A stretch of DNA of 63,898 nt, counting the filler, from Patellaria atrata CBS 101060 (lineage: Eukaryota), in assembly GCA_010093705.1 (NCBI GenBank). It is 7 parts of 6 records of this genome, joined end to end, with 100 filler letters (N's around TTAATTAATTAA, not from the genome) between each part and the next. Parts side by side here need not be neighbours in the genome. Positions count along the whole stretch, not along the records: positions 2,918 to 20,771 come from MU006125.1; 6 more parts are not named here. One strand, given 5' to 3'. The position numbers and the translations under genes are program-made. Numbering within the stretch: position 1 is the stretch's first letter; each line of letters begins with the position of its first letter. The notes under the pieces were generated by a model. The model was not told the DNA's origin, ran no database searches, and saw only the letters and a list, made by a program, of their open reading frames with translations. Positions 2,616-36,762 of the stretch are shown one piece after another.

Positions 2616-2920
2616 AAATCTTCAGATATATTGCGATGCAAACCGATAGAAGGGTGCAATTGACCTAGGTGAATATTCTGATAAAGTCAGATTCGTTTAT
2701 TAGCTAGTTTTTTGATGCTAGACTGTCATGTTAACATATCAGGTTGGAATTCTTTGGATGAGGCAAATTTCCATCCGTGCGCACTGCCAAGGGCCTCCAT
2801 CTCCTAGTCTAGGGGGANNNNNNNNNNNNNNNNNNNNNNNNNNNNNNNNNNNNNNNNNNNNTTAATTAATTAANNNNNNNNNNNNNNNNNNNNNNNNNNN
2901 NNNNNNNNNNNNNNNNNCCT

Positions 2921-3004
2921 AGTAGGTATAAACGCTGTAACCTGCATGTTCTCATGTATTTAAACGCTCTTTAGTACAGTCATTAAACAATCGAGCGATT
3001 ATCT
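2921..3004 (+). repeat. Dispersed repeat R1, copy 1 (5' truncated by gap)
   Basis: agtaggtata..ttctcatg..aacgctctttagtacagtcattaaacaatcgagcgattat matches 53630-53717 and 55764-55848. Confidence 0.8.
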
Positions 3005-3051
3005 TGATCATTTTCAGCACCCTTACGTCTGACAATTAACCTTCTTAGCTC

Positions 3052-3720
3052 TTAAAGCATCTCCGCTCTTCTAGCTGACTTGCAATTTAGCACTACCATC
3101 TCCGACGACTTAATAGCTAAAAGTACCTCTTCAGCCATTTGGTATTGGTGGTCCCAGTATCCTTTGATCAATATGCAGCCTCTTAACCTGGATATATCTA
3201 GGGAGAGACCCACTTCAAACATCTTTTTCACGTCAGACTCATAAGAGTATTTTTCTTCCATAGTTACCGGGAGCAGCCCCTCTCTATACGGCCAGTATCC
3301 TGCGAGAATAGTGTTAATGATAGATCCCAGACTGAAGATATCAACTGCCGGTGACGAAACCCACGGCAGATGGGGGTCAAAAAAGGGATCGTCGGGCAAG
3401 TGGTGGACATTCAATCCCAGCTCATCACACCTCGCTCTACCAAAGTCGTAGAGCCAGAGGTCCAGCGATAGTTCAGTTGTAGTATGTACTTAGTGCTTAA
3501 GAATGGAATGGTCTGTGGTATTTAATGAGGAAGAGAGTCTCGGTTTTGGATGCGATGTTAGAACGTTGCCCATCTCACCTTTCCTTTTGTCAACCTCTAC
3601 GACAGAATGCGGGCTTCAAAACCTTCGGAAAAAATTGTTTCTCTGGAGAAGGAAAGGAGTCGAATCTCTGACCCCTTTTATAAGCCGGCAGAAGATAGAC
3701 TCCAAAGGTGGATTGAATTA
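3052..3720 (-). pseudogene. Protein kinase-like pseudogene
   Basis: LDLWLYDFGRARC (DFG), PFFDP, DIFSLGSII..GYWPY; stops/frameshifts upstream; 5' limit approximate. Confidence 0.7.
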
Positions 3721-5012
3721 CGCGAAACAGAACCCGAGATAATAAGTAAAATTTTTAAAAAGAATATAAATGGTATTGAAAGAATTTAAATATTTAATAA
3801 TTATTTCAATCAATATTGTTGTCTAAGGCCTTGTTAGAATTCCGTGGTTGTTTTACACGTTGATTGACTGCAGGTAGCATTTATCGCATTAGCTCACTCA
3901 ACATCTTCTCCATAATATATTCGGTGGCCTACGACTTTCGCGAGATTAACTGTCAAATTCGGCGTGAATATAAATACGTTCATCTCTCACACCATTTCCG
4001 TCTTTCCCACATCCTTTCTCACAATGGCCTCAACTCAACTCATACACTCAGACATCTCACCTTTCACCGCAGAGGAAGAGGAAGAGATGTAAAAGGAGCC
4101 ACCAAATCATGATGCAACAGTTGGTTCAGCTAAGGTCCGAAATCTTTTTTGTGCTTTTCTAACCGCTGATTCACATTGTTATCCAAGGTTGTGCGCAGTC
4201 TTTTGTCGACATTGGTCAGCTGCTACAGTAGCAATATCACTTTGGGACAGAACTTCTCACAATACACATTACTAATTTTGACCGTATTCGCGTGATTCAC
4301 AGCGCTCCATTCTTGGCATAAAAACATACACCGCGAGACCTCCGTACCGCTCCTCTCTCCTTCTTTCTCCTCCAGGGTCGAATGATAGATCTTTCACGTA
4401 CTACCGCATTGTTTGTGGTGGGTGCTGAGAGTTGAAAGACGGACCATATTATGATTTAACGGTTGGCTTAGCTACTGGCTTCGGAATCCTTTTGGGCGTT
4501 TCGAATCGCTGGGTTGTATTGTTATCTGAGGTTTCGAGATGGTCTTGACGTTCGCGACTCCTCCCGATATTGCATTTGTTGAATGTCTTTTTCCATCTTA
4601 ATCATGGCGAGTAGTATCTGCAATCCCGTAGTTAGATGAGCTAACAGACTCGGGAATAGACTCGTTATAGGTTTTACGGCAAACTTGACAGCGGACCTGA
4701 GAGCGGACTTGACAGTAGAGTTCCAGAAGAGTTGACAGCAATACAATCTATCTTGTCTAGAAGCAAAGAGATACGCAGTAGAAGAAGGGTCATACAATCG
4801 TAGTTATTGAATATCAACTCTATACAATTTCAAAAACCCATTCATGTTTCCGGACGCCATGCTAGAAATACCATAATTCACCTAAGTCCCATATATACAC
4901 GGAACAAATAATCAACTCCATAACCCAACAACACCAGAAATCCCTAGAGAAATGAGAATAGACCAAAAGAAACCCTACGCCCATACCCACTATATACAGC
5001 ATACCTCCCTTA

Positions 5013-6178
5013 CTAGTGTATTCCTCCCATCAAACTCTGCCTCACATTCTTATTCACCACTCCTCCAACACCAAAAGCAGGTACGATCCTTCCTACTCTT
5101 GCGAGACAACTCTTTCCCCACTCACTTGTGACCTTCCTCATCCTCTCCGCCAACCCTATGTGTTGTCTATTATACATATCCAGGCCCAAAAGATGTAACG
5201 GCGTGCTCACAATTTGCACCGCAGCAGGAGTAAGGAACTGCGCTGCTGAAGCGCTCGAGAAGTACTGATCTAGACTCTTCGTAAACCCGGGAATATGGTA
5301 TTTCTCAAGCTGTAGCCGCGGTGCAATCAGAGGCGGTAGATTGAAGGACGCGAAGATCGTCAGGCAGTCACGTAGGGTAAAGAGGGCAAATGTGGGAAGT
5401 GGGACGGCACGGGGAGCTTGGTTAACGGCGCCGAACATGCGTGTGTAGGAACGGTCTTTGATCAGTCCGAGGGAGAGATTGGCGGTGGAGGTTGCGGCGA
5501 ACTTGGTGAAGGAGGGATGTTGGGCGCTGTATGGGGTTGAGGAGGAGGAGGAGGATACAGTGGTGGTGATTGTATCGACTGTGTTGGCTGTTAGGTAAGT
5601 GCCGCCGTAGACCATCTGCGAGGTTGTTAGTTCTGAATTCTGATAATAGGAGGAAAGCGCGGCGAGGAGCTAGGAGTCCCTAATCGGAAGGAAGTGGTAG
5701 GAGAGTGAACTTAGAACATGGTCTACGTACGAATATGAGGGCAAATGGTTTCGAAAAGATAAACTGGTGTGGACGGAGCAGGAAAGTAGCTAAGGAGGTT
5801 TTTATGCTTGCACCGAGTGTATTGCGGCCGGACGCGTTCTCAATGATTCCCCTGGGAGTCAAATCAGAAACCAACTGTCAAAATCATGCATACAGGACCC
5901 GTATGCAGTTGCATATATTTCAAATGGACGAACCTATCAATAATCGAAATAATGGGTGCAACAAGGGCTCCCGCTGAAGCAGCGGCCGCAACATCCGCGC
6001 CCAACCTAAGTCCTAGATGCTGTGTATTCCATTCCGTCAATTTCGGTACATTCGGCGTAGGAACCACCGTAGGGATGGTCGCAGCAATCGGCTGCTTCAG
6101 CGTTGCGGCGTTGAAAGCTATCGAGGTTACTGCGTTACCTGGCGGAGGTGCTACTGGGTGCGTGTTGCGTTCTTCCAT
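5013..6178 (-). CDS. Conserved fungal multi-pass membrane protein (mitochondrial carrier-like fold suspected), 3 exons
   Basis: Spliced ORFs MEERN..WNTQHLGLRLGADVAAAASAGALVAPIISIIDR / GIIENASG..PFALIF / MVYGGTYLTAN..QIVSTPLHLLGLDMYNR..RIVPAFGVGGVVN; GT-AG introns. Confidence 0.75.
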
Positions 6179-6667
6179 AGGTCCTCCGCAATTCTTGTAT
6201 GAAAGACCTGTTCTGGGGATACATGAGATTAAGTACTTTAGGGGTACGAGAGCAGCGGTAAGCAAATAAGCTGCAGATGATGATGAGGCTGCAGTAGAGC
6301 TCTAGACGTTCAAGTATTTGCAATGGAAGTGCCCCGGTCAAAAAGTTGCGGATTGGCTCTTGCGGCCGACAAAAAGCGTCAGCTAAACCCTTCTCCGTAT
6401 TCAAGGATGCGAGATCGGGGATCTACAGGACTATGGCCTAAAATAGTAGTGAAGCAGAGTTCATCAGGCTGTATTTGCTTATCCAGTAGTGTGTGATTGG
6501 TGTATTCATTATAGTGGGTATATATACAAGATCTATGTCCGAATGTACTCCTCCTGTAGTACAAAAGCGTGTCAGGCACCACGTATGGGCATCAGCATAA
6601 GCATAAAGGATTCCACTCGTTGCCACCGCAACTCCACTGCGTTCCATATGGGGCTGCGGGATCAACA

Positions 6668-8603
6668 TCATGTTGGGAGGTTGACAATCCAGTTCTCCCA
6701 GAATCGCAGACCATCAAAGCTTTGCTCACGACACAAAACACCCCTTTCTTCGGCCATTTCTAACTCCTCGGTTGCGACTCCCACACTCCAGCCAAAATGC
6801 TCAGCTGTCTCCTGAGCTGTAACGCCTTTCCCAAACATAGTCCAGTCCCAAGAAACTTTATCAGGAGGGGGGATAGAGTGCAGACTATTTAGCCAGCTCT
6901 GTAAGCTAGCAATTGTCTTTTCATCGGTACGATCACGACCTTGCACTGCGAGAAGACCACTTTTGAACTTTCGTAACCTGACGGGTAGTTTAAGTTTATC
7001 CCAGAGCTGTGCAGCTTTTTCGAAATCAGTAGGGCTGATGAGTTCTACACCACCTCTGAATCTGTTAAAAATTGCCCACAGATCAACTAGACTCATAATT
7101 CCCCCTTCTTTTCTCAATATGCCTCTAGCATCGTCTGTGAGAAATTCCGCTAGGTTCCTTGATAATTCAGAGAGATACAAGGAATTGGACCCTGACCCTA
7201 ACATGTCCTTTGTTGTGACAAGACCCAAGGCAGAAGCAGATTGGGAAACTAGGGCATTAGTTTCTGTAGTATTTCCGTTTGTGATGTTTCGTTGAGACGC
7301 GAACTGCTCAGCGAGGGCGATAATTTCCTTTGCAGATGTCATAAGAGCCTCTAGATCTTCGAAGGCATTACCAATCACCAATTCATTGGTTTTTCGAAGT
7401 TCCATCCCTCGTCGCTCAAGTGCCGCTATGCCTACGCTTTTATTTCGATCTAATGACTCACCAGAACCAGCGTAAGGGCCGTCATCGAACGTCCCCGAGT
7501 TTCGGCCTGGTTTGGGAACAGGGGGAGCGCTTTCAAGGAGCCATTTACGCTGAACCATGGCCCCTTTCAGTCTTTCATGGAAAATCTTCTCACCTCCATC
7601 GCGGAAGGAGAATTTGATACTTTCAATAATATCGTGGTCTAAGGGTGCGCTACCGAGACTGGGACCTGGAGATTCTACGCGATTCACACCGTCTCTTAGA
7701 TCCAGTCGCCTATCCATAGCAACCAATGATGTACCGCACATTTCACACGAGACAAGTGCTGGATCATTGTCAAATGTACAGCGCGGACATCGGTATGTTG
7801 GCGTTGCAAAGGGATCTGATAGATTATCTGAACTTGTAGAAGGTGCGAAATTTCCAGCAGGCCCCTGAGGTCTTAAAGGTACAGGAGCAATTGGAGCAGA
7901 CTGTCTATTTGTCATTGAGGAAATGGTTGCCTTAACCACATGAACCAAAGGCGGTTTAATACCACACGCTAGGCAAGGCGGTAGAGGAGTGTGTATATTG
8001 GCGGTCGAAGGATCGAAATTCGACGGAACAGGATTAGAGAAGGAACAGATAGGACAGATCCATGTTGCTTTAACACTGACTTGCGGTGTTGGCGAACTGA
8101 GGGAATGTGCTGGACTTCCATATCGTGCGGGAGGTGTTCTAGGCGAGGCAGTATTTGAGATATTCGCAGAATTTGGACCACGGAGAGAGAGTGATGCCCT
8201 TTTGGAGAGTTTCGGGAAGAAAGTGACCTTGGGCGATGATTTCAAGAATCCTGCCTTTGGGATTGTTATAAGCCATTATCCACAACTCTATATTGAGCAA
8301 AACATACATAGAATTCTACCCTCTCCACTTCTTTAAGACTTATAGCGACTGAATATTTTCGAGGCTCCTCGTTGTCTACGTAACAAGCTCGGTGGGATGT
8401 CAGGTATGCATGACCATTTTGGTAGTGGGGAATTTTATATTTCCTGTTTGGGCCAAACTGGGTCAGTATAACGGTGGAATAGATATTGGGGGAAATACAA
8501 ACCCTTCGTAGAGACCAATGGAATCCTGTACGAAGAGTAAAGTCTCATCTGGGAGCAATAAAGGCCGTAGAGCGGTGGTGAGATCTATTTGACGAAGGAA
8601 CAT
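6668..8603 (-). CDS. VPS36: ESCRT-II subunit Vps36 (GLUE domain split by two NZF zinc fingers, EAP30 C-terminus)
   Basis: Exon 1 MFLRQIDLTTALRPLLLPDETLLFVQDSIGLYEG; WICPICSFSN, CPRCTFDNDPALVSCEMCG, IKFSFRDGG, AFEDLEALM, GGIMSLVDLWAIFNR. Confidence 0.95.
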
Positions 8604-9140
8604 TCAGGACATGCGACGGTGGGGATTGGATGGTTATGGTATGTAATTAGAATGTAACTTCCCGGTGTTGAATGTGTCGGAGTGGAATTGTCGATAAAAG
8701 CATTCAAAAGGAGAAACCATAAAGAACTGACCTTATCGTTACAGTAGTATATCTTACCTTTAGCTACGTCGGCCATCTCGGGCTTTCAAACGGGGCTGGG
8801 TATGGCCCGCAAGTACTCACATCGTTAACCCCCCGGAGCCAGCCGCCCCTTAGAGTCTTGGTATGCTCGCACTACAGGTCACATTGACTTTGTCTTCACT
8901 CACTCAAGTCTTCACTTATTATCCTGTCTACCTTGTCAACGCGCCGTTTGTCCTCAAACCTCGACTGATTCTGTTTTCATTGTCTCTTTGAATTCTCATT
9001 TTCTTCTTTCTCAACTCCACACTTGAGCATCTCGCAACCCCTACCTCTCGGCCCTCGCATAGTTCTATTGCCATTCAGCTAAGTCGTGAACTGCTCATTC
9101 AAGATTCCTACAAAGACCAACAGCTAGCTCTCAGCTTGCT

Positions 9141-11164
9141 ATGGAGGGCGATTTCGATGGTGTGGATTTCAAGAATTCTAAGATTGAACAAAAATCTCAC
9201 CCTCGTTTTACAGCCAACTCCGTGCCCGCCTATTCCACTGTCAACACCAGACGCAGTTTCAACAACCCTAATTTGTCTACCCGAAACATGCATTCTGCAG
9301 CCCCGCCGTCTCTATCGTCGTTAACAATGGAGGGTGGACATTCTTCTACTGTGCAACCAAGTCCACCGCTCCCTAAATCAGCGGAAGATTATGTTTATAG
9401 GACTTTCCAGTATTTCCAGGGACACGAATCAAACCAGAAAGATAGGATAGCGGCCGAGAACAAGCTTAGGGAAATCCTCGAGGCCGCTGTAAAAAACAAC
9501 ACAATAACCAAGGTAGACTGGGATCACTATCCCCTTCCCCAAGATATCATCCGCCAGGAGAACTTGACGCTCAGTAGCCAAAAGTTCCGCACCCAAGGCG
9601 TTAGCACTAACTCCGATGCCGTGCCGTTCCCAAACAGATCTAAGAAGCGTAAATCTACTGATACCAGTTTCACTAATTCCTCTAATGATGCTACAACCCA
9701 TGGGGACGTATCCGAAAATGTGCCGTCAAAAAAAAGGAAGAGCAAGAAGGCCCGAAAGAAGGAGAAGGAGGCCATCAAGCGTGCGGAGCAACAGCAGCAG
9801 AACGTTGATCAGCTCAGTAACAATACTAACACTTTCGAAGAAGCTTTGCAGAGGCGAGCAGCTCGTTTCGGAACGGGAAATAGTACCTCTCATCCGCTAG
9901 GTCCATCCAGATCCCAATCCCCGGTCTCGACACCACCCAAGATCTCAACCCAGCTCATCGACAGGATTTCCTTCCAGTCGCATACCAACAACGATCAGAC
10001 CATGTACCAGTTTCACTCTTCAAGCCCATTTCAGGCCTCAGTCCAGCATATCGACACAACAATGTACTCAAATTCCCAGCTCCCTATTGGCCAATCTTTT
10101 TATTCTTTTGCACCACAACCGATTGTCGGCAGATGCATGCAATGGGAAAAGAGTTACTTCCGATTAACGGATGTTGCTAACCCGAAATCTGTACGGCCGT
10201 TGCCAATTCTGCGTGAGGCGTTCAAACAACTCAAGTTAAGAGATGATCGAGATTATGGTTACCTTGCCGACCAGTATAAGTCTATCCGCCAAGACCTCAA
10301 TGTTCAAAATATCAAAAATGAGTTTACTCTTGAAATCTATGAGTATAACACTTGTCTTGCCCTGCAGCATGACGACCTGGGTGAGTATAATCAGTGCGCG
10401 GCGCAGCTACCAGCCCTCTATTCTAAATTTCCGGGACCGCGCAAGATTGAGTTCATCTCATATCGAATTCTATACCTTGTGTATACACTCAATCTGCACG
10501 AAGTATGTGACCTTATTAACGAGCTAACCCAGGAAGAGCTGTCCTCTTGGCCAGTTCAACACGCTCTTGCCGTATGGCGAGTTGCCCATAACCCAATATA
10601 TGATGGGTCTGGAAATTACAGAGATCTGTTTATTTTGTATAGGTTCCGTCCAGCCCACCTTCAGGTCCGTCTTATGGACATGTTCCTCGAGCGGGAAAGA
10701 CTTCTTGCCACGGAAAAGATTTGCAAATCGTAAGTTCTAAAGTGTTCATATACCTAAGGTAACTTATTTGTACTGATTATGATTCTAGTTTCAGACCTGA
10801 GGTGCCAATAACCTTTCTCGCAAAGGTTTTGGGTTTCCGTAGATCTTTGTGTGTCGCGAACGATGACACCATCTATTACACTCCCGAAATTCGCAAACTC
10901 CTGCTGCATCCTCCTGACAAGGCTCTATGTCGTCCAGCAGAAGCCCCACCGACCTGGGCACAGCTCTTGGAGATGACCGATGAAGTGAAGAAATGGCTCG
11001 TTCACCACGGCGCTGAGGATTACCTCAGTGTGAAGAATGATGAGACATACCTTGATATTCTGAAATACAAGAACGATGCAACTAAGCCTCACGCATTCAC
11101 GATTTTCCGTACCGCGCGAATGGCAGCATTCAAAACCATTGACATCAAGGGCCAGCGGGCATAA
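9141..11164 (+). CDS. THP3: SAC3/GANP/THP3-family (Thp3/LENG8-like) PCI protein; intron ~10730-10789
   Basis: IVGRCMQWEKSYFRLT..VRPLPIL, YLADQYKSIRQDLNVQNIKNEFT..YE, DLGEYNQCAAQL, EFISYRILY; C-terminus IDIKGQ. Confidence 0.85.
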
Positions 11165-13541
11165 TCGACAAAACGACCTTTTGGTCTTCCAACGGGTCAA
11201 GTGACAACCTACTTTCCTTCTGAAACGGCTGCTTCTTATCTCATATGAACTTACGACAATATCCTTCTTTCCCTTGTAGTTCATATGGGATGCGAAGAGC
11301 TTCAACTGTGTCGGCGTCCCGTATCGGTCATATCCATTTTGTTTTCCCTTGTCGATACTAATGAGTTTCTGAATTTTCCTTTTGAGATACCAAGTTTGGA
11401 AGGAGGGAGGGGGGATTTAGTGCTCTAGCTACGGGATGATGGAGTTTCTGGACTGATAGATGTCAGTCACGGTGTTCCGATTTCAAATGATACGGCCTCG
11501 GTTTGAATTTTAAGGTATCAAGAGTCGACTCCCTAGGTTCTCAATATCAAGGGTTGGCGTCTCCGTCCTGATATCAAACGTTAAGATAACGGGTCTGTGG
11601 GTCATGCGACATCATTGACCTCGGTCGCTGGCTCATATCATGCCATGGAGTATCGGTCCCTGGAAATTACGATGATATGGCGACCTTTCAGTCTTCTTTC
11701 TGGACAACGCCCGGATGTATTAGTCTTGCTTTCTCCGTGGCATGTTCCTCAACATTTGCTTTTCATTCGTGTAACTCATAAAAATCTAGTTTGCGTGCGA
11801 CAGAAATGAACAATTGAATGTTCAGCACTTGTCTTTCACGTTTGATTCGTAGAACTACCGTTTAAGCCGGAGTCTGTGACGACGACTGACAATCGCGAGA
11901 TGGATTAATATTCTTGTGATAGTGATCGAGCTGCAGGACCAAAAGTACAATTTCACCATGCAAACATCTTGCTTGTGAAGTGATTTGTGTTCTTCCTACG
12001 CTTTCATGTTTCCGTCTTCAGCGTGATATTTTGTGGATCGTAGTAGAGTTAAAGTTACCGATACCGCGCGCCGAAACCGGTAATGCAGTGTTGAACGTAC
12101 TATATACTTGTCTTGGGTATGATATTAAGGTACTTATTTACAATCCCGAATAAGAGTTATGGGATTCAGCGTCTTCCAAAACCCTACCGTCTACACTGTG
12201 AGTCTGTGAGGTAGAACTACCTTTTAGGCCCCTTTGGGCGCTCGGGTGTCCCCTTAGTGCCTTGTAAAACTGCCCATTTCTTCCTTCTATGTTATTCCTA
12301 CCCAATGTATATTCATGGAGCATATGGAGTATGGGAGAGTACGCGTTAAGAGTTGCGAAATTGAAAGCAAATTATGAGACGTTTCGACTACGATTTGGAA
12401 TTAGAGCAGAATGGAGAACTATACAACAATGAGACAAATTGACAAAGAGTCGTTCAAACCCACTGCTTTGGGTCAAGTCTATGACGGTCTTTACACTTTC
12501 TTTTACCACGTTTTCCGCAAACCTAAACGCAGTAGTAGATCGTAAGAGCCATGGCTAACAGTTCTTTACTGTTTTACTACTGCATTCCGATCAGCTGGAG
12601 TAACCGTATGAGGTGGAGCGCTGTGTACTGTAGTTCTAGAGAGAAGTGATCGAGATCCGGCCCAAGGATTGCGGATTTGACCCCTTCCTTTGGAAACAGC
12701 CCAACGCGCATAACCATCACACGTAACTCTGTGTATGATGGTATCCTTAAGGTGGAGCCCAATAATAAATGACAGTATATGACAAGAGAATGTCCCACAC
12801 TGACATCGTCTCGCAACTGCCAACTGCCAACTGCCCCGTTCGTTAGGTTTGCTTTATCGATAGATCCCCGTCCCAACGTCCTTGTTGCTGGGATTGTCGT
12901 TTGACCTTTAGCAAAAAGACGATTCCGCCGTGCGAACCGGATACAGTAGAGACGAAATTCTTCAACAAGCCTTCAAAACTTCTCCATCACACCCCCTTCC
13001 AGATCAGCGAGAACGTTTGATAAGCAGTTAACGTGTGGGGCACACAATTGAAGCACGTCTTGTTCGCCTTTCCAGTGAATCTAGTCAGCCATTAGTGTGG
13101 CAACCACGAGTCTTCCACCCTTGGTATTCTCCTTCTAGGGCTGGCTCGCAGGGTTCGCAGACAGACCCCTCATCTTTTCTTGACCATAACACCTCCTCTC
13201 ATTTCCCCATCTGAACGTTGATAAAGCTCGGTGCTTCTACACTGCGGACGCTGAAGGCTCCTCGATCGCATTTCCTTGACCTTTACATTCCATTGAACGT
13301 CCCCTATACCGGAATTCTGCTCCCAGCGACATTCGTGCGGCACGGCGCGCTTGAAGTGAACGTGAAGCAGGACTATTTTGCTACAACGCAAAGCTTGCGA
13401 GGGATTACCTTACGACGGTTTGCATATTCGGATTTACCTACATTAGAATCATACAAACGACAACAACGCGTGCGCGCTCTGGTAGAAGGTATAAATTACT
13501 TCGACAGACTTCTCAAAAGCGATTGTGTACACAACGACAAA

Positions 13542-15257
13542 ATGATCAAGGTGTGTACTCTTTCCTTGCGCAACTGTTCTCTGAAGTAAAATAAGTTGAC
13601 TGAGATTATCAGTTCTCGAGGAAGTCGAGGACTTCGAAGATACAAGGAGAAGGATCACGCCATAATTCGATTACCACGAAAGACATTACGGCCAAATTAG
13701 CCCCAAAAAAGGTACGACGTTCAGTGGAAAAGTATTTGCGCCATAATAGGACCTGGAGTTCCTAACGTATATTCACAGATTATTCGGGCACGATATGATT
13801 ACGCTCCTCCAGACTCCGACGGCTATCTGTCGTTCACGAAAGGAGAATTTCTTTCCGTAATCGGTCGTGAAAATGATGACAGTTGGTACGAGGTGTATAA
13901 CGAGAATGGAAAACGGGGTCTCGTCCCGGCGAGATACTTCGAAGATGTCCCGAAAACTGCTACTAGGGATAGTCGAGATTCGAATACTTTTCCTGCAAAG
14001 CTCACAGTCAGCCATGATTCGGGTATACAAGGTATCGAGCCGGAAAAACCGCCTGCAAAGCCGCACATTGCGGTCAAACTCTTGTATAATTTCAAAGCGG
14101 AACGATCAGACGAGTTGGAGGCCAGCGAAGGAGATGTGCTTATAGCTGAGGCGCAATCCGATCCAGAATGGTTTTTATGTAAAACGACATTCGGCGGTGG
14201 CGGACCGGGACTGGTACCTTCTTCATATGTGGAGATCTGGGACAAACAAGGTGTTCCTGTTCCTGACGCCGATCGCGCTGAGTTTATACGACAAGTTGGC
14301 CTTCGCACGATCGAAAAGTGGAAGGAGGATGCCCAACGGTTGAAGGACGGGGCTATCGATCTCCGCAAGGTCACCCCTTCGCAACCCGCCTATCCCGTCA
14401 AGGCGTCAGTGCCTCAATACTATTTTGCAGAAGACATATTTTGGTTCATCGTGGAGTGTCAGATGTCGGACGGCAGCTACTGGGCGCTCTCCCGAGTCTA
14501 TCAAGACTTTTATGATCTTCAGATCCTATTGATTCAGAGCTTTCCCGTAGAAGCTGGCGCCATTGAGGGAACGATACGTACGCTCCCTTATATGCCAGGA
14601 CCTGTTACCTATGTCACCGATGCTATCTCCAAGGGCCGTCGCGGAACTCTGAACGAGTACATCGAAAAGTTATTGGAGTTGGGCTTGCATATCGCCAATT
14701 CAGTCCACGTGAGAAATTTCTTCAAGCCCCGTGAATCGGATTACGAAATCGATCCAAATGTGGACGCTGGGAATAATTTCCGTGACTCCAACGCATCATT
14801 CCCGTCCTATCGCGGAGCCTCGCAAGATATGACTCCTCAAGGAAACCTGCCTCCAGACCAACATTACACCGAGTCTTCCACTATGCTCAATCACCCTACC
14901 ATTGGAACCTCTCAGCCGTACAATGGTCACTCCAGCTTCAGCACACCTGCATTCCAACCCCAATCAAGCACTCTGACACAGAACTCTTCCCAGTCCGCGC
15001 AGAGTACCACTAAGATCAAGGTTTGGTTTAGCGAAGAGAACTGTGTCATCATTCGCATGCCTGCAAACTTTAACTACAATGACCTCTACAAGAAGCTTAT
15101 CGAGCGCCGTAATATGGAAGAGCCGCATCATAATGGAAGGGCCCTGGTAGTCGAGTACAGGGATGAGATGGAGAACCAATACTTTACACTTACGGACGAC
15201 CAAGACCTAGAAATCGCAATGGAGAGAAACCCGAAGTTGACGCTTGTTGTCAGGTAG
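13542..15257 (+). CDS. BEM1: Polarity/NADPH-oxidase scaffold Bem1 (SH3-SH3-PX-PB1), 2 short 5' introns
   Basis: MIK / ..APKK / IIRARYDY..LSFTKGEF..GLVPARYF; LLYNFKAERSDEL..GGPGLVPSSYVEI; PX LSRVYQDFYDLQI..LPYMPGP; PB1 KIKVWF..YRDE. Confidence 0.93.
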
Positions 15258-16688
15258 GACCAACATCGACCGATTGTATAATAGTATCCTACCACCGTGA
15301 AACGTTTCAACATTATTTTATGGACTTATCCTCGATGCGAAGTACACTTTAGATCCCTTGCCATGGATCCAAGGAGAGTGTACTATACGATATCCCGAGC
15401 GTCCCGCGAATCTTTTCTGTTGTTGCACAGTTCCTGTATCCTAAGCGTTACTAATCTGGTTCGTTTTTTATAGTCGTCTGATCAAAGTTGGTAATGGTTC
15501 GAAGTAGAAGAGGAATCCTTTTCGTCTGCACGTGATTGGCACCATGCTCATCTGCCTACGTTAGGGACGTCCTCATCCTGGAGCCAAGTCTTGAGGCCGC
15601 TGAAGACTTTCCGTACAGTACATGGGGCGTTTTCTACTGTTCCGGTGCGCTACTTTGGACGCCATGCTCATGTTTATGGTAGGAGTATAGGGGTTGATGG
15701 GCGTTCTCTATCCAGGTTGATCTGCATCGTATGATGTTATTGAATGAATGAGCGGCAGAATCGGATTGTGTGCATCTTATGAAAAGGGCCAGATCTTTGT
15801 CTCTTTTCTTAATCATCAAAGGAATGGATATACGTGCCTCTGGGAATTTCTCAGGTCATCTCATTGTGAAATTGACTGCTAGCTCTCTCAGGTCGTAGTT
15901 TCCCTTTGTTCTTATCAGTCCATCCGGTGTATCTTTTCTCTCCTAATCTGTACGGAAGCGTGATATGGGATGGAGAGAAGTGATCGGTATCACGGTCGGA
16001 AGCGGGTAGTGGTTCATTCGTGGTGTATTCCAGAGGAAACTCGTGCTGTCTATTTTATTCATCGCTTGCAATATCCTGTTACTTTGGTCTTCCTATTAAA
16101 TGTACTCGGTTCTTTGTTCGTATCGTACACTGGCTTAGCACTCGTTTTTCTACGAGTCGTTAGCGTACCCGTCTCATTATGTCTTCGTTTCAAATATGAG
16201 CCAATCTTATGTCGGAAAAGAGAACCTCTTGGATGATTAATGGGGTGTATTTTTCAGCTGAACCGTGTCTGTAAGATGCGCTAACGACTCATAGAAAATC
16301 GGCTGCTGTTTGCTATAGCGGTGACTTCCAGTGAGGGGAGGAGTGAGCAGTTGACAAACCTGAAAAGTTAATATAGAGATTACTTCCATTTCTGGATTGG
16401 ATTACTCAGGTTTATAGATATAGGTTAGGTACTGGTTACTTCATGTATTGGTTTCTTTTGCACACAGATAAATGAGAAATAGTAAAATTAAGTTCCGTTA
16501 TCCCAGCGATCACCGTGGATAAACAATAGACTATTAATTGGATAAAATATAACCCAACACCGCGGTCAAAGCCTCAAAAGATGTTGAGCAAGCTAATCAC
16601 GCTTGCTCATCCTTCCTCTCTTACATGAGAATCAAAAAGAGAAAGCTACCATGATCAAAAGACTGAGTAGTGAATTTGCAAAAAATGA

Positions 16689-16781
16689 TTCCGTTGCGGG
16701 GAATCGAACCCCGGCCTTGTCGGAACTATATCACTAGAGGTGAATGAGAGCGACAAATCCTAGCCACTAGACCACAACGGA
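16689..16781 (-). tRNA. tRNA-Glu(CTC) with intron
   Basis: Minus strand TCCGTTGTGGTCTAGTGGCTAGGATTTGTCGCT-CTC-A[intron]CCGACAAGGCCGGGGTTCGATTCCCCGCAACGGAA; acceptor stem, A/B boxes, downstream T-tract. Confidence 0.95.
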
Positions 16782-17209
16782 GATGACATGTCTTTTTCCA
16801 AGTTTTATGCAGCTTATACCCCGCCAACAAATCATACGCCGCATATTCTCCGGTCTTCGCTCTTCGCTAACCTCCTCCCCTTTTAGTTTTCAGTTTCCCG
16901 TATTTCATAAGTTTTTTACACGATTCTTCAAACTCCATTCTTACATTAATCATAGAATAACCGCGTAAGGCCACTAATGCTTTAACTTTCTTCCAACAGC
17001 GCCTAGAATCTATACATGGAACTAGAGCAATTCTTAGGAAGGATGGGGGTGCCCACTTCGCCCTCGCTGTGTCTCTCTATCGCGTTTCCTCGTCTCCTTA
17101 ACTTTCTTACCTTATATTCTGATAATATCCGTTGAAGTTCTCTTTATTTTACTCCTTTCTATCGTTTCTTCCTTTATCTTTATTCATCTGCTCAAGTGTG
17201 TTACCTAAC

Positions 17210-19834
17210 ATGGACGACGAGGATAATTTTATCAACGAGATCCTCAGGACGGAAGCTGCGAACGACGATAACGTACAGCCCGTTATTCGTCCTTACTTGA
17301 AGGAGAAGTTCGACCTTCTTCACCGTCGATTTTAACAGTACATTCTTGTTCTAAGTTATAGTTTCTACAGCTGATATATAGAATAGATATGCTGTTCAAT
17401 ATCTACCGAACACGCGCCATGTAGATGTACCTCTCTCGGAAGTTCCTACACTTTCACAAATAAAGGCTTTTCTACATTTCTGGGTTCGAAATACTCGGGG
17501 CAAAATCGAATAGAAAGTCACCATCCGTACTTTAGAAAGGGTATAGAGAGAGATACAACTACTCCTTTTCCTTAAGCATAACTATAAATTTGGACGGAAA
17601 GAAATCGACTTAATCACCGACTATATTCACATAGATATTCGAGAAAGATTAGGGGCATCAAGTAAATGTCAACCGAAACCTGTGGCATCGTATCCCGTCA
17701 CGAAGGATCTACTCGAGTATTCATGGAAATTCGATACCTTCGAGTACGCACACCCTCGCTGTCGGATCTAGCTTCACTTTATAATTCTTCTACTCAGTGA
17801 TTTAGGCCTCCGCCCTGGCGAACTAATCGAGTCGAGATGCTGGCCAGAGAGCAATAAGGGTTTACATTACAAAGACATCACTCTCACTAAGTCTATGACT
17901 GCGTCCAAAGGAGCAATTTGGACCATAAGTGTGGCAGTTCGCAATCAGAAGGGTCGTAGGTTCAAACCAGATAGGTAATCTTGCCAGGTCCTAAACATAG
18001 TTCGTAAATGCCTATGAGCTAACAACTTGAGTAGCCTAGAGATTACTCTAACTCCAATGGCCGATAAAGCGACTTGCGTCTTCACACATTTCTTAGCTCT
18101 AGCGATTGCGGATCAAGCTTATTCTACGCTTCCTGATCTAGCGGCCTTTAATACGATCTAGGTTCCGGCCTCCCGAGCCGTAATTACCTTAGAAGCTAAA
18201 CCTGAAATGAGGGATATTCCTATCGTACGAGCTGTTACACCGTCCGGCCTCATATCAGAGACGCAGATTTTGAAACACAAAAGCTGTGGAGGGCAACTCC
18301 GAGCCCTTAGGGAAAGAGCAGGATATAAAGACCCCATATCCGCGTACTACTTTAGACGTGGTTTCGCAAATAAGCTTGATCAAGCCGCAACTACAGCCCA
18401 AAGGAGATAACGCATGGGACATACAAATGATAACACCTTTCAGGCCTATATTTCCCGAAAGTCGGTAGTGGATGGCCAATCGATCATGCGTGGTTTGCCT
18501 CAGCGCGCAAAACTTTTCGATTTCTCAAGAACAATGCTTCTAGAGAGGGATGTTAACGCACCACCACCCCACGGCGCCGACCTGACGGCCCCGAGACGTA
18601 GGCCTATCGCGATACCTACCGTGACCACCGCCGAAAGGAGGCGTGCAGATATTAGTCGCATGCGCCGAGACCAATTCCGTGAGGCTCGTTCAGCCCATTT
18701 CAATTGCATCCCTTAGTCGGATATGGTTCAAGATGACCACCAGTTTGATGGGGATATTGAAGCTTCGGATATACTTCTCCCTTCACGAACGGAGCATATA
18801 CTTATGCAGACAGTTTTGAGATACGAGCCTCAACGGGCTAAGCTTATCGATGTCTTATATAACTTAAACGGGGCTCCTCTTGTTGCTGAGAGGTCTATAC
18901 TCGAACCGATGATACTGATGTCTTCTCCCTCATACGGAGGTGTATGGTACCCTGAGGCGAAGCCTAATGAGAAGGGTGATTGTCCGAACTGCGATACGGA
19001 TTTGGCAAGGTGAAATTTCTCTCCTACACGCCAATAGCACGCGAAAACTAATCAAGCTATGATAGCGCTGGAAAAGCGCGAAAGAGTAAGCACTTACTCT
19101 TATGTGCTCGGCAAAAGCGTATTGCCCAAAAGATAGAGGCACTGGACCTTATCACACGAGCTCACGTGTCCTGGTGTAGGTGGGGAGACGGAAAGAAATG
19201 CGACAAGGATCTCAAAGCCTGTTCGGGAAAAGAGGTCGCGAAACATATAACAGGTCACTTAAAGAATTCCTGTCAGAACGTATATCTTTGGGAAAACTGT
19301 CAAGGAAAAGGGTTCATCGGGTATGAATTAGCTGCCCACTTGACAACTAAGCACTATGTTCCGAACGATTTAACAATACCGGATCGACAGTACTTCTACT
19401 ACAGTTGCGCAGGATATGTTGATAATAAAATAGTCTGGGAGGCGCACTGTTACTCACACCTGGAAAACCTTGGACTATTCTGCGGAGTAATAACAATTCA
19501 TAGTATAGTTATTCAGGCCGGCACCTGTCCGTTCTGTATAGGGACTAAAGGAGCAGCTGCGAAGCGATATCGTCAGTTTCCCGATGTGCATACTCTTCAT
19601 AGGTATATCGACGCGCATATTAATGAAAAACTACGGAGTCGTGTATTATCCTTTCCTTGTCCTCATCCTCGCTGCTTTTATAACTCAGGTTCCGCTGTCT
19701 TATTTTCTTCCAGAGAGGATTTCTGGGAACATTTGTTCGATGTCCACAGAGTACAGCCGACGGAGCCTCAAAAAAGGCCTGGGGGGATTGTAGCACAGGA
19801 TATAGAAGTTGGACATGTAATGAGGCAGGTCTAA
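17210..19834 (+). pseudogene. Starship captain-type tyrosine recombinase (DUF3435-like) with Cys/His-rich C-terminal extension; RIP-inactivated
   Basis: Tyr-recombinase motifs LGLRPGELIES..GLHYKDI, VRNQKG, HFLALAIADQA, AGYKDPISAYYFRRGFANKL, MGH..TFQAYIS; several introns; multiple in-frame TAA/TAG consistent with C>T. Confidence 0.85.
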
Positions 19835-19850
19835 TCGTAAGAAAGGAGTT

Positions 19851-20010
19851 AGCAAGTTATATCGTTAACTTGAAGTGCAAACATTTACGTTTTCTATCAT
19901 TAGCTAAACCCCCCATCCAAAGGGAGGATCACGTTAGTGAGAAACCTTGCGCGTTTCTAGACTTACCAAGTTCCGTCTTAGTGAGGTGAGTATAGACTCC
20001 CGTTAACAAC
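19851..20010 (+). repeat. Non-coding element R2, copy 1 (immediately after captain stop)
   Basis: agcaagttatatcgttaacttgaagt..agtgagaaaccttgcgcgt..agtatagactcccgt matches reverse complement of 53979-54139. Confidence 0.8.
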
Positions 20011-20345
20011 GACCTAGACTTGTTAAGTTCCATATCTACTAGTATAGACTCTATTAAAGTCTCGTTCACAAGACCACCTCCCTTTAACACAAGGTTACCT
20101 TTGTCCTATTCTACACCGTATACTGCCATATCTTGTCACTATAGTTTATTCAGTTGCTGCAACCAGCTTTTCATGCCGTAACCGGTTAACCGTTTGCGGA
20201 CAGTACTTGTTTAGTCCATCTGGCTTTGTGACTGACCATCTGAGCTGGTTAGTGAGTGACAGTCTAGGCGGGCCGGGACCAGAATTATAATAATATTATA
20301 ATTTCAAATCGAACTTTTGTAATTTAATATAAATACAAGGTCAAC

Positions 20346-20771
20346 TTAAGAGGAGGTGGGTGGGGTGGAGGTAAGAGCTTTAATCCCAAGCAAAGTGATA
20401 AAGCCTGATGCATGACCTAGTACAAGAAGACCATCCCTGAAATCCTCTATGGGTGCTCGAAAATCCGGCGGGAGCCAAATAAGTTTTTCCATTTTATCAT
20501 TACATACCCAGTCTTGTTGAACGAAGGGACCAGATGAACACACCTGTGGTGGTAAAAAACTTGAGCTAGTAGGATAAATACTAATCCTTCCTCTATTCGT
20601 ATCCAGATAATATCCATTTAAGGAGAACTTAAGGTGCTTAATATCCTCACCTACATTAATAACATTTTGGTTAGTTCCCGTCTTCGAGTCCCAGAGCCTG
20701 ACGGTGCGGTCGTGTGATGCCGATGCCACGACCTGGCCGTCCGGCGAGAACGCTACGGCGTTGATCCAGCT
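20346..20771 (-). CDS. C-terminus of a WD40-repeat NLR (NACHT-WD/HET-E-like); 5' part lost in gap
   Basis: WINAVAFSPDGQVVASASHDRTVRLWDSKTG; LKFSLNGYYLDTNRG; WLPPDFR..LVLGHASGFIT terminal motif. Confidence 0.85.
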   Translation of the reverse strand, partial: SWINAVAFSPDGQVVASASHDRTVRLWDSKTGTNQNVINVGEDIKHLKFSLNGYYLDTNRGRISIYPTSSSFLPPQVCSSGPFVQQDWVCNDKMEKLIWLPPDFRAPIEDFRDGLLVLGHASGFITLLGIKALTSTPPTSS

Positions 20772-20871
20772 NNNNNNNNNNNNNNNNNNNNNNNNNNNNN
20801 NNNNNNNNNNNNNNNTTAATTAATTAANNNNNNNNNNNNNNNNNNNNNNNNNNNNNNNNNNNNNNNNNNNN

Positions 20872-21499: not shown

Positions 21500-22428
21500 A
21501 ATTCATCATCTCCTAGAAGTCTAGTATATCGGACTTATTTCTAGTTGTTTGTAAGCCGGATGAAGGCCGAGTCTCCGCTGGCTTGACCCCTCTTTTAATC
21601 ATAATCATGACGAAGGAAATGGCCTGGCAAAGCTGTACGAGGTTTAACACCTAACAGTGTCAGCTAGTGTTTATAGATTATAGGGTATTGTCCTACTATA
21701 TAGATAATATGAGTAGCTTTCATTACTCTTATATCTTTATTTGCAAGCATGATAGTAATAACAAGCGTTCCGGTGAGTAAAAGGGCCACAGTTGACGCTT
21801 TATAGGCTATGAGACAGGATACCCATCTGCGAAGCGGTTTACTCGAGGTATTGTGAGTAAAGCCGAACATAGGGATTATAATATAGCTAATTTGGCAGGC
21901 TAAAGCTAGTAAAGCAAAGGACTCTAAGATAGTGTTAATCTTAGTTATTCTCGTATCATTTCTAGAGTACTATCAGTAGTGAACGGTTTATTTCGAGCAA
22001 TAAGCGTACGGTACGAAGAGTATTCCTTGCAGGATGCTAAGTACTGGGACGATGCTTTGGATCCACGCGGGCGATAAAGCTTCATGGACTATATAAAAAT
22101 TAATACGTGTTAAACAAGTCCACAACATTTTACTTACATGTATGAGAAATCGACATAGGAATGCCCATTTCAATACTAGGAGTATACATCGACCAGACAC
22201 TGATTGACCAATTACGTCTATCCACGAAAAAATAATTAAGCAAGATTGTGCAATAATCACCGATAGACTAAAGATAAAGGAAAATGTACTAATAAGTGCT
22301 AGTACTTGATCCCGAGAGAAGACTGCACGTCTATTCACCGGTGTAAAACCGAATAGAAGGATATCATATAGAAGGACGATAGACGAGAGCGCGAAAACAG
22401 AGGTATCAAGAGCTAAGAATTCCGCCAT
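21500..22428 (-). pseudogene. Multi-pass membrane protein, RIP-degraded
   Basis: Hydrophobic ORFs 21988-22428 and 21664-21870 separated by stops; 3' end approximate. Confidence 0.5.
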
Positions 22429-22767: not shown

Positions 22768-24600
22768 CTAGAATAACTTGCTACAGCAAATCAGCTGGGA
22801 AAAGGTTGGCCACTCTGTTTTGACGCCACTGATATTTGGTGTAGTTTTTGCAATTAGCGCATACTTAGATTTATAGAGTGAGGAGATGCGCAATAGAATT
22901 GTTGTATTAGATCGAGATTTATCCCCTGTTCTACTCCTACCATGTAACTCCATCAAAGTAACGATTTAAGATGATGAGTATAGTTCATCCATCAGCTCGG
23001 CAGTATTGATCGAACCAGCAAAAACAGAGCAGAAGGTTCTGCGGCCTATAGTATTAAGGATCTTGTGAAATTGCACTTATTTTTGCTATCGCCAGGGAAA
23101 TATGTGCGATTACCCATTAAATCGATCTACAAGAATATATTTTTATGTACTAATCGAAGTCTAATACAATCCTCCTCAACTAGACACATGTCATTGGGAT
23201 ACAGCCCACGGAGGCATACGCGTTGGCTGTTGCTTAACAGAACTTGTTTATTTAAACAGCTCGTGAGTTCTGTAACGTGCTTCTCCGGACTAGAGTCAAT
23301 AGGTCGAATGGTAGCAATATATGACTGGATGTCCCTGAAAATATTTTGACCCTTGCACGTGAGGTTGTTTGAAGCGTATCGACGCCAGTTGGAGTGGTAG
23401 GTAGAACTAGGACCATAGATATCCTCAGTTAAAATGTTGACGAGTCGAATCAAGGTGATGACTTTGCCTCTACTCGGGAAGTAAGATAGTAACGTGTTTG
23501 GAAGGAGAATCGGGAATAATAGCCTAGTCTGACGTCCTAGTACTCTTATATGATGCTGAACAACACGACAAATTTTGCTAGAAGAGATGTTACTAGGACA
23601 CCAAGTCTGCTCCGAAAGGCTGGATGCGGAAGTCGATACGAATTCCTCATCGGAGGGTGGATGTTTCTGCGTGTGGTGCTCCGGTGTCCGTTCGACCTCC
23701 ATGTATTCTAGTGTGGTAGAGACTTCATCGAGAGACGCTGGCATGCTTGCAGCATCCAAGTCTAGTAATGAATCATCAGCCAAAAAAGGATGAGACGCTC
23801 GTGAAGGGCCGTTATGCTGGGTGCGGAAAGGGTCAAGTATCGGCCGCGCCTCGATTGTAGGAGTTTGCACTTCGCTGTACCCATTCCTCGCGCCCGGCAG
23901 ATCCATCCAGGTCTTAGTCAGTTGGTGGGAAGAAAATTGTTGGTTTGAAGCTGTCCACGAAGATTCTGTTGGTGCTGCTCCACTTGGATGATTAAGTTGC
24001 TCAGTATGCATAAGCTTGCCCGGAGGTATGCTTAGCGCGCAGCTGATGGGAATCGAATAACCTGACGCATCGTCTTCCATAGGCACGTAAGGTGAAGGTA
24101 GGATTTCTTGTATAGAGTAGGATGTAGTATTTTGGGTTCCATCCTTGGAAATAAACAAGTCAGATTAGCTCTATGAAGATGGAAGATACATACTTCTAGG
24201 TTGGTTATTAAGGTTTATGTGGGGAGCTGGTGAAGAGCTGGGGACCTCTTCTACTGTACGTCGTGTTGCGCCTGTTTACGCCGTTGTGGAAGGGTTTGCT
24301 TGGAAACCTTCTGGTTCCCGAAACCCTTCTTATCAGGCCGCCTCCGCTTGGGGGTGCCGCTCTGACGTTCGAAATTTGACCAGCCATGAACGCGACGCAT
24401 GTGTTCATCGCAAAGGGATCGTCGGCGAAACCCCTCATATTCCTTAGATCGCTCACAATTGAGATACGGGCATAGATAGACACCCACACCGTGAATCTCC
24501 CTGTCATGACGGAGAAGAGAAGAACGCGATGCAAAGCGGGTCTTCTCGCACGACGCGGCCTTCTCATAACGATATGGCTTTATGTGACATTCTAGGTACT
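22768..24600 (-). pseudogene. C2H2 zinc-finger protein with long C-terminal region; probably disrupted
   Basis: HIKPYRYEKAASCEKTRFASRSLLRHDREIH and YLCPYLNCERS..GFRRRSLCDEHMRRVHGW fingers, followed by 343-aa ORF; exon structure uncertain. Confidence 0.55.
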
Positions 24601-34240: not shown

Positions 34241-35177
34241 CTATGACTCGCCGTCGTAGTACTGGTCCTGTAGCTTTCTCAACTGCGATGACCCACTGCT
34301 TACCTCGCCCGCCTCGCCAGCGACGAGTTTCCCGCTCCAGACCCTATCCCGCTCTTGAAGGATCTCCTCTGCCCAAGCTTTGGTCTCCGGCAGAGACACT
34401 TTGGTTGCCACATAGGTAAACTCGCTGAGGTCGACCCTGCCCCCTCCACGCTTCTCATACTCCACCATCTGAAGAAGGAGTTCTACCTTATCGATATCTT
34501 GGACGAACCGGCTTTCTAGCGTCTCGGAGTCCTCGTGTTCCTGCCATAGAGCACGAATTTCTGTGCCCACAATTGAGGCTCCAGCACCTTGAACGTTTCC
34601 TAATAGGTGTTGTGTAATATAGTCCATAGTCAATGTCTCTCGTCGAATCTTCTCCCTCTTCGGAACCCCGTCCGCAGGTGTAATATCACCCACCAGTAAC
34701 TCGGCCATATCATGGATCAGGCACATCTTCATACACTTAAACAGGTCCAGGCGTGACGTAAGGGACGCGGGGCCGAGCATTGTCATCAGAGACATCCGGT
34801 ACATGTGATCGGCAATTGATTCGCCTCTAAGGGGCCAACAGTTAGTATATGGTACTAGCAAATCCAGGTGACAGTCTCACCCATTGATACCAAACCTTCG
34901 CCATCCCTCACGCTTCGTAGTCTTAAGTCGCTCCAATATGTGGAAGAATGGTACGGGAGAACTTGAATCTTCCATCGGCTTGTCGAAAGTAATAGCAGCC
35001 AGTGCTTTATCTACTGTCCATGGGTTGGATATCTTTGGAGTGATTACGATAGAAGGGTCTAAGGGTAGTTAGTAGGAGCACGAAGATAGATAGCATAACG
35101 CCGATGAGATATAAACCTAGGATCTCCTTGCTGACATTATTAGTACCGGTATCGTCGTTCATTGTGCTCAGCGACAT
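34241..35177 (-). CDS. HD-domain 5'-deoxynucleotidase (HDDC2/YGK1-like), 3 exons, ~274 aa
   Basis: Exons 35177-35117, 35058-34881, 34826-34241 splice in frame; PVPFFHILERLKTTKREGWRRFGI..ESIADHMYRM..CLIHDMAE..GDITP..FVQDIDKVELLLQMVEYE. Confidence 0.92.
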
Positions 35178-35367
35178 GTTACTGGCGTTGTGATAATTCG
35201 ACAAGTGATTTTCTGCCCAGCCTACTCTTGGCGAATCTTTAGTTACTATACCACATTAGACCTAGGTAGTTTCGAGCGATTACCTGCTTCCCCAACCAAC
35301 AAAATCGGATCTTCTATCACGGCGCCGCTTGACATAGAAACACGTATTTAGACCATTTCAAAACGTT

Positions 35368-36762
35368 ATGGAAGTTAATCTATCCCAGTTGGATATGTCA
35401 CCGCTTCCATTCCTGCATTTAATGCAGGAACTCAAGCACATGGATAGGACTGGCTGGTTGAGAACGGTCCGGAAGCCTGAGAGCGTGGGAAGTCACAGCT
35501 TTCGATTAGCACTTCTGGGTGGTTTCGCGCCGGTTGGTTCTGCTTTTCATTTTCATTTTCTATTTGCTGACCTAGTAGTGTATAGGATCCTTTGGATCGG
35601 AGGAAGTGTATGTTTATAGGACTGTGCCACGACTTAGCAGAATCAGTAGTGGGAGACATACCAACATATGCTGGTATGTCTAAAGGTAAGTAGGTAGATT
35701 TTTTCTTTAATCGCTACTAATTGAGTGATATGTGTTAGAGCGGAAGCATAAACTAGAATTCTTTGGCTTCCGGTATATTATATCGTTGGTAACGCCTTGC
35801 AATGCAAAATATGCGGACGAGATGATGACCGCCTGGTTAGAGTATGAAGAGGGCAAGACTGCAGAAGGTCGGTGGATGAAAGAGATGGATAAATTAGAAT
35901 GCTTGATACAGGCACACGAATACGAACAGAAGACGTATGGGGAGAAGAACCTCGAAGAATTTCAGGGACTCTCATCAAAAATTAAATCTCCCGAGGGAAT
36001 AGCGTGGTTAAACTTATTAGGACAAGAGAGAAGCGCTCATCTCTCAAAACGAAAACGGCGGCTCCCTGTCATCTTCATCACTGGTATGTCCCGAAGGTCC
36101 TAACTGTCTTCGGTGCTAAGTAGTATAGGTGCCCTAAGTGTCGGCGAGACACAATGCGCTCTTTTGTCCCAGGAGTTTGGATTTCAGTACATATCCTTGC
36201 AGAGTGTCCTGCGTGAAATGTCTGAAGACCAGACATATCTTCACGCAGAGTTCGTGAGAGATTGCCTGAAGGAGGAAGTCGATGTTCCGGTGGGTTTGGT
36301 AGTTAGCTTGCTTGAAGGGAAGATTGAAGAAGGCATAAATGAAGGAACGCGGTGGAGCCTAGTCCATGGATTTCCGAAGAGCATGGAACATGTTCTTGAG
36401 TTTGAAAGAAAGGTTAGTATCCCTACTCCCGATAGCATCTTACTAAAACTAGTAGGCCCAAAAACCTAACTACACACTATTTCTGAACTGCTCCGCAGAA
36501 GAAAAGCGTGTTGGAAACCCGAAGCAATATTATGGGGCTGATGATGAACTAGACGGGTGGAAGACTGGGGGTTTAGATCTCAAGGATTACTTAAGATCAA
36601 TGGAGGGATATTTCAAGGAGGTAAGTAGAGCGTAACAAAAAAAACGAGTCATGTACTGATTGCATGTCGCAGATAAATTGCGATGGATCTGTGGCAGAGG
36701 TCTTTAACTTAGTGAAGAATGCAGTCAACGATTTTATTGAATATGCAGAGAGGGAGAAATAG
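35368..36762 (+). CDS. HD-domain phosphohydrolase fused to a UMP-CMP/adenylate kinase-like domain, 6 exons, ~382 aa
   Basis: Exons 35368-35532, 35586-35685, 35739-36083, 36129-36412, 36456-36620, 36673-36762 give an open frame; LKHMDRTGW..ESVGSHSFR..CHDLAESVVGDI..DKLECLIQAHEYE; then VIFITGALSVGETQC..FGFQYISL..LVHGFPK..INCDGSVAEVF. Confidence 0.85.

Follow-up and report, generated by a model that had tools for sequence, protein, structure and literature searches.

A degraded Starship-like element, apparently of the Voyager family, at the 5′ ends of tRNA-Glu(CTC) genes in Patellaria atrata

Background

In a 63,898-nucleotide stretch of DNA from Patellaria atrata CBS 101060 (hereafter the window), a recombinase gene resembling the captains of Starship elements starts a few hundred bases from an intact tRNA-Glu gene, which raises the question of where the element ends and whether the tRNA gene was its target. 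Captains are reported to excise their element as a circle, which is then integrated by tyrosine recombination where the element end and the target have a short stretch in common (PMC10104507; 10.64898/2026.09.21.753150). Excision is described as scarless, with element ends that carry target-like sequence (PMC10104507), and a circular intermediate has been reported (10.64898/2026.09.21.753150). The specialist Starship targets described are 5S rDNA and AT-rich DNA (PMC11162782), and the text of the same survey, which covers 222 insertion sites and used tRNAscan, gives no tRNA class. No description of Starships inserting at tRNA genes was found in the literature searched outside subscription journals, which included accessible parts of PMC11162782, PMC9156397, PMC10104507, PMC8869645, 10.1101/2024.06.28.601215 and 10.64898/2026.09.21.753150; the supplement of PMC9156397 gave 0 matches to "tRNA".

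Results

The window is a concatenation of pieces, and its positions 2918-20771 correspond to G000:C37:1-17854. On the host side of the junction, left of the tRNA, stands a core gene of the BEM1/Scd2 type (SH3-SH3-PX, PB1), the main exon of which (13701..15257, plus strand) gave Pfam matches to SH3, PX and PB1. The tRNA-Glu(CTC) gene (16689..16781, minus strand) is intact, with a 21-nt intron at 16724-16744, a score of 50.2 bits against the Rfam tRNA model (cut-off 29) and, seen in the sequence, a T6 Pol III terminator (16680..16685, minus strand). The left arm of the element (16782..17209, plus strand) forms the 5′ flank of this gene and leads into the captain (17210..19834, plus strand). Directly past the captain stop lies a short, dispersed, MITE-like repeat (19843..20008, no strand assigned), whose first 57 bases match at about 30 places in the genome, followed by the 3′ (WD40) end of a HET-NACHT-WD40 NLR cargo gene (20009..20771, minus strand) that goes on at G000:C37:19050-21722. 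This gene is the true downstream neighbour of the captain, on the opposite strand. Both the intact tRNA-Glu gene near the captain and the core/accessory boundary at the captain, as described in an earlier note on this DNA, are borne out, with the BEM1-type core gene on the left and the HET-NACHT-WD40 neighbour on the right. The window's "accessory" genes past 20872 belong to another contig. The N linker at 20772..20871 (no strand) marks the change, and the DNA past it does not continue contig C37; window genes beyond 20872 were rejected as element cargo for this reason. Linkers of the form N-TTAATTAATTAA-N at 20772-20871, 51205-51304, 52875-52974, 61913-62012 and elsewhere join pieces of different contigs, so gene order across them is not genomic.

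The captain was recognised as a DUF3435 tyrosine recombinase from Pfam and from an alignment of relatives, and has a C-terminal Cys/His-rich region. Its exons, inferred from GT-AG sites and reading frame, lie at about 17210-17337, 17387-17974, 18035-19009 and 19066-19834. The third exon matches PF11917 (DUF3435) with an E-value of 1e-28, a positive outcome of the HMM check that the earlier note had proposed. Exons 2, 3 and 4 compare with full-length captains at 34%, 30% and 31%, respectively, and the RPGE, YxxRR, MGH and Y motifs align with those of the relatives. As in other Starships, the captain is the first gene and is directed into the element, with its ATG 428 bp inside the arm. The reading frame contains seven premature in-frame stops, all TAG or TAA (17333, 17511, 17544, 17769, 18159, 18408 and 18714), and 67 of the 90 transitions between the window captain and a sister copy fall in a CpA/TpG context, so the gene reads as a pseudogene killed by RIP. 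All three captains in the genome carry stops. The captain called at 17210 in the earlier note therefore stands as a DUF3435 recombinase gene, but it is dead, which the first reading had missed.

Judged from its captain, the element appears to be a degraded Starship-like element of the Voyager family (fam10). This placement is a look-up of the nearest captains in Table S4 of PMC11162782, where Zopfia P0002, Cucurbitaria P0006 and one Patellaria recombinase are listed as fam10, that is, Voyager. The nearest named proteins are Patellaria atrata records (93-97% over fragments), and after these come proteins from Zopfia, Pyrenophora, Cucurbitaria and Elsinoe at 31-40%, with Zopfia P0002 (40%) the nearest from outside Patellaria and Cucurbitaria P0006 at 31%. 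A search with captain exon 3 among longer proteins gave none that scored. Patellaria recombinases are catalogued in PMC11162782 with no element annotated for the species. In the supplement of PMC9156397, a Patellaria captain is named close to Alternaria Starship captains in the legend of a tree, a proximity that reflects label order only.

DUF3435 captains of one lineage occur three times in the genome: in the window, at C22:300587-303182 (copy1) and at C5:766568-769143. The C5 captain is cut at both ends, lies inside other accessory DNA and has no adjacent tRNA. The left arm also occurs three times, in the window, at C22-copy1 and at C22:290489-290819 (copy2), where it is cut by an LTR at the equivalent of window position 17023. 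The region of C22 that holds two of the arms, 12 kb apart, is rearranged. A module of left arm, captain and HET-NACHT-WD40 gene is common to the copies; the gene is 92-93% identical across three regions, with HET and NACHT Pfam matches on the C22 and C5 copies, and is an auxiliary NLR of the kind counted among Starship cargo. The MITE-like repeat is missing from the alignment of the C5 copy, in which homology picks up at 20009.

Comparison of the three arms locates the left end. Over 16782-17023, the copies are 91-92% identical (220/242, 220/238 and 218/238 in the pairwise comparisons, with 1-2.5% transversions). Followed outwards from the captain, the homology passes the motif TTCTTAC, enters the tRNA 5′ exon (32/37 and 35/37 matches) and ends there in all three copies, so that the zone holding the left junction comprises the tRNA 5′ exon and its edge (16745..16782, no strand). 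Farther on, the introns of the window and C22-copy2 genes match at 13/21 positions, with 19% transversions (P = 6e-4 at 90% identity), both retaining a hairpin through changes on both sides, and their 3′ flanks, with 39/89 matches, agree no more closely than does the unrelated C6 control (45/89). Since the three-copy homology starts at 16745-16782 while introns and 3′ flanks differ, the left end is placed within 16745-16782, at or inside the tRNA 5′ exon. The window and copy2 tRNA genes, with introns and 3′ flanks far more diverged than the arm, are thus old paralogs to which one arm was joined at an identical base. These two targets are firm, whereas C22-copy1, where the tRNA 5′ exon is present and the 3′ half is not recognisable, is only a probable third insertion site.

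The same contrast bears on whether the whole tRNA gene might be cargo carried at the left end, with the terminus beyond the tRNA 3′ end. Such an arrangement would suit the C22 copies, which lie in or near accessory DNA, but it sits poorly with an intron and 3′ flank far more diverged than the arm and with the lack of a 3′ half in copy1. The intron contrast largely refutes it, and we consider it very improbable.

The earlier note had placed the left end near 16.94 kb, at TTCTTAC (16938-16944), with an inverted GTAAG at 16965-16969 and the captain ATG at 17210, and referred to TTAC-type target repeats; the motif would then be a Hephaestus-like TTAC target upstream of the tRNA. The positions are as claimed, and the motif (16938..16969, plus strand) is kept in all three arms. 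It is, however, internal to the arm common to the three copies, about 155 bp in, and is not a terminus: the window arm matches each of the other two at 41/50 over 16782-16831 and at 100/106 over 16832-16937. The pattern CTTAC-N15-25-GTAAG is found twice in the window against 0.59 expected, a count reached by 12 of 100 shuffles, and the TTAC motif, described as the boundary target TTAC(N7)A, belongs to the Hephaestus family, whereas the nearest relatives of this captain are of the Voyager family. Shared sequence to the left of the motif refutes an end at TTCTTAC unless the three copies are segmental duplicates, which leaves this placement with scarcely any likelihood. The note's wider expectation of a boundary near the tRNA, rather than far from it, held, as the left end maps to the tRNA 5′ exon.

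Four tRNA-Glu(CTC) 5′ exons were found in the assembly by two pattern searches, one of them RIP-tolerant, and three of the four carry the left arm. The fourth, a paralog on C6 that starts TCCATT and not TCCGTT, has no arm (upstream match 17/50). Among the tRNA-Glu(CTC) genes found in the assembly, only the window gene and the C6 gene have an intact 3′ exon; the C22-copy2 gene (C22:290727-290819) is damaged in the T-loop, anticodon and acceptor stem, while the window tRNA beside the same arm is undamaged. This difference suggests that the window gene, which is one of only two intact ones, is under selection. Elsewhere in the genome, at least 39 other tRNA genes (a lower bound) and 13 full-length 5S genes or matches carry no arm, since the arm search of the genome gave three copies only. 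Relaxed ARAGORN calls were taken as noise except where they matched known copies. All three left arms are thus at a tRNA-Glu 5′ exon and none at a 5S gene (0/13 full-length 5S), in contrast to the 5S rDNA insertion typical of Voyager. A random insertion would fall within 500 bp of any tRNA with a probability of 0.001-0.004, and the link to tRNA is not due to chance. Of the preference for sites upstream of Pol III or tRNA genes that the earlier note had suggested, the tRNA link holds, but it is specific to tRNA-Glu(CTC) at one position and is not a loose preference.

This specificity also bears on Ty3-like tethering, in which Pol III factors would guide the element to the start of any tRNA gene with no recognition of sequence. 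Tethering would account for a junction that coincides with the mature tRNA 5′ end and for the survival of the tRNA, but all three arms sit at one isoacceptor despite the many other tRNA and 5S genes available, and the captains described use sequence microhomology (PMC10104507); we regard it as improbable.

Copying between paralogs requires closer attention. A single ancestral insertion upstream of one tRNA-Glu gene, followed by ectopic recombination or template switching within the 37-bp 5′ exon, could have spread the arm to the other paralogs without captain specificity and would produce the same junctions. In yeast, tRNA genes are rearrangement hot spots, and the C5 copy, cut at both ends, shows that the module can be copied. 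The first 60 bp of the arm, moreover, resemble an ordinary tRNA flank: a TATA stands at about -36 of the window tRNA, inside the element's left arm, and a TATA within -45..-21 is found at 13 of 30 tRNA genes, compared with 14 of 120 control slots. Copying would, however, depend on two or more rare events within 37 bp of homology. Each arm has diverged from the other two to about the same degree, so the C22 pair is no recent local duplication, and the Voyager family is known to target a Pol III gene. On balance, we judge spread by copying to be unlikely.

Starships have direct repeats at both ends, and a counterpart of the left junction was sought on the right-hand side. No inverted match to the arm's first 14-20 nt, such as terminal inverted repeats (optional in Starships) would give, was present in the stretches of C37, C22 and C5 searched, no displaced tRNA piece of 12 nt or longer was found in the right-hand regions examined, and a search of the assembly, which has gaps, gave no separate piece of tRNA-Glu nt 1-18 or 1-31. 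An exact 11-mer equal to tRNA nt 21-31 occurs at C37:22216, within the 42 bp that separate the module shared with C22 from an older captain remnant. Its probability in that slot is 2e-4, but the slot was picked post hoc, tRNA nt 1-20 do not follow, and the background is 2 occurrences in 240,891 positions against about 1.6 expected. In C22-copy1, the match to the tRNA is 22/23 over nt 1-23 and 10/14 over nt 24-37 (Fisher p = 0.057). An origin of nt 17-37 from another tRNA was rejected, as no other match was found at three or fewer mismatches. A 24-nt look-alike motif is present in direct orientation on both flanks of the C22 region (C22:260824-260847 and 303281-303304), but it was not used, having been built from those two places, and 5 of 200 shuffles reach its score.

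Behind the element on C37, at 22232-22326 and 24283-24415, are remnants of an older captain 3′ end and its following spacer, 75-90% identical and in the same orientation, placed as in a tandem array at one site. On C22, a 198-bp inverted repeat pair (279847-280044 and 300142-300339, 98.5% identical) encloses 20 kb with copy2, a PD-(D/E)XK nuclease gene and an Ap4A phosphorylase gene, which is possibly an inversion or a nested element.

Relatives of the captain were also looked for in metagenomes. A scan with P0002 gave 81 pattern matches and 0 confirmed, and a scan with the captain alignment A6 gave 43 loci, most of them distant (identity to the queries no higher than 47%) and only 16 with at least 1 kb of upstream sequence. 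The one close relative, L078 (44% to exon 3), has less than 300 bp before the ATG and no tRNA there. The set gave no support for the enrichment of related captains near tRNAs that the earlier note had proposed to test, with a tRNA in only 1 of the 43 loci (L109, which is distant and truncated). Rfam, run on 20 of the 43, gave one 5S. This 5S gene, at L089:8308-8427, lies about 1.3 kb past the matched part of a distant captain relative. At L109:4972-5663, two identical tRNA-Asp(GTC) genes stand in inverted orientation with shared flank pieces, and the 5′ end of one of them faces the 5′-truncated, distantly related captain about 340 bp away.

The arm was also compared with 5S. Its first ~35 nt have a weak colinear likeness to 5S nt 1-39 that meets the tRNA at a shared CCGTT, which is both 5S nt 35-39 and tRNA nt 2-6 and is absent from the C6 paralog with its TCCATT start. 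With the whole 5S, both strands included, as the reference, the window score is reached by 22-127 of 1000 shuffles (p = 0.02-0.13); the copy1 score is not significant, and 1-9 of 30 control flanks do as well as the window arm; a 5S profile search (nhmmer) on the arm ends gave no match. When the comparison was limited post hoc to 5S nt 1-40 in the sense direction, window and copy2 beat 30 of 30 control flanks and 0-10 of 500 shuffles reach their score, and with the tRNA bases removed from this post hoc test the shuffles doing so number 8-18 of 500 for the window and 21-106 of 500 for copy2. The likeness is only suggestive of a switch of target from 5S to tRNA. Voyager's listed repeat matches nt 20-31 of this genome's 5S, antisense, at 9 of 12 positions; a likeness of the arm to that repeat was rejected, since 315 of 1000 shuffles reach 9/12.

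Discussion

The reading we favour, and hold to be probable, is that a Voyager-family Starship recombined site-specifically into the 5′ ends of tRNA-Glu genes, antisense to the tRNA, and is now dead. The same end at the same spot of two other tRNA-Glu copies suggests a lineage aimed at tRNA genes and not at the 5S of its relatives. Under this site-specific reading, a circular element would integrate by a crossover somewhere in tRNA nt 1-37, the first few bases being the simplest position; integration would rebuild the mature tRNA and give it the arm as a new 5′ flank. Integration would have occurred separately at least twice and probably three times, with RIP killing the captains afterwards. 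The crossover may have taken place in the first few tRNA bases, leaving behind only a short repeat, which fits the lack of a displaced tRNA piece and a C6 gene starting TCCATT instead of TCCGTT. Alternatively, it may have taken place near nt 21-31 with a carried replacement piece, for which the drop in the copy1 match past nt 23 (p = 0.057) and the 11-mer at C37:22216 can be cited.

The locus shares much with the Voyager family (fam10, clade 3), which includes Voyager of Macrophomina phaseolina and Starship-2_Aten of Alternaria tenuissima (PMC9156397, PMC11162782): the captain family is the same, and the captain is first and points inward. Starship-2_Aten, which targets 5S, carries a HET-NACHT gene close to its start and on the minus strand (PMC9156397), and the present element is arranged in the same way. 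Voyager is reported to insert 20 bp from the 5S start (PMC9156397). In both cases a Pol III gene present in many copies is the target, near the 5′ end of the gene, and Voyager's repeat is antisense to 5S, the same polarity as that of the present element relative to the tRNA. The family differs in targeting 5S where the present element is at tRNA-Glu(CTC) with a dead captain, and insertions in 5S are predicted to disrupt the gene (PMC11162782), whereas the target tRNA here is intact. Hephaestus Starships likewise have a captain, but of another family and with the target TTAC-N7-A (PMC10104507), while the TTAC-like motif here is internal to the arm and at chance level.

If true, a tRNA-targeting lineage would add a classic bacterial integration site to the parallel between Starships and ICEs, would exemplify a switch of target from one Pol III gene to another within one family, and would suggest a safe-harbour integrase whose target goes on working. 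The claim is limited, since the element is dead and known from one genome. A more specific version is that a 5S-targeting Voyager-family ancestor switched to tRNA-Glu via CCGTT, so that the arm would keep a decayed 5S 5′ end, cross over in the first bases of the tRNA and leave a working tRNA, amounting to phage-like, non-disruptive tRNA integration in a eukaryote; we offer this tentatively, as a possibility with the odds against it.

Integration at tRNA genes by tyrosine-integrase elements is a familiar process in bacteria (PMC9156397). In bacterial prophages, ICEs and genomic islands, the tyrosine integrase lies beside the attachment site and the tRNA survives, as here; in contrast to those elements, the recombinase here is a eukaryotic, intron-bearing DUF3435 protein, and no displaced tRNA fragment was found at the far end. 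Dada transposons of fish and Perkinsus are eukaryotic elements with sequence-specific tRNA and 5S targets that switch between small-RNA genes, but, unlike the present element, they have a DDE transposase, lack large cargo and insert inside the A box or the anticodon arm (PMC8869645).

The pieces of other contigs in the window have features of their own. Positions 51305-52874 are a repeat of extreme AT content (3-13% GC) that resembles many stretches of other contigs; this DNA may be centromeric or fully mutated by RIP. A dynamin-like gene (56045-58419, minus strand), HD-domain genes (34241-36469) and TPR repeats (52927-53346) are typical of fungal accessory regions.
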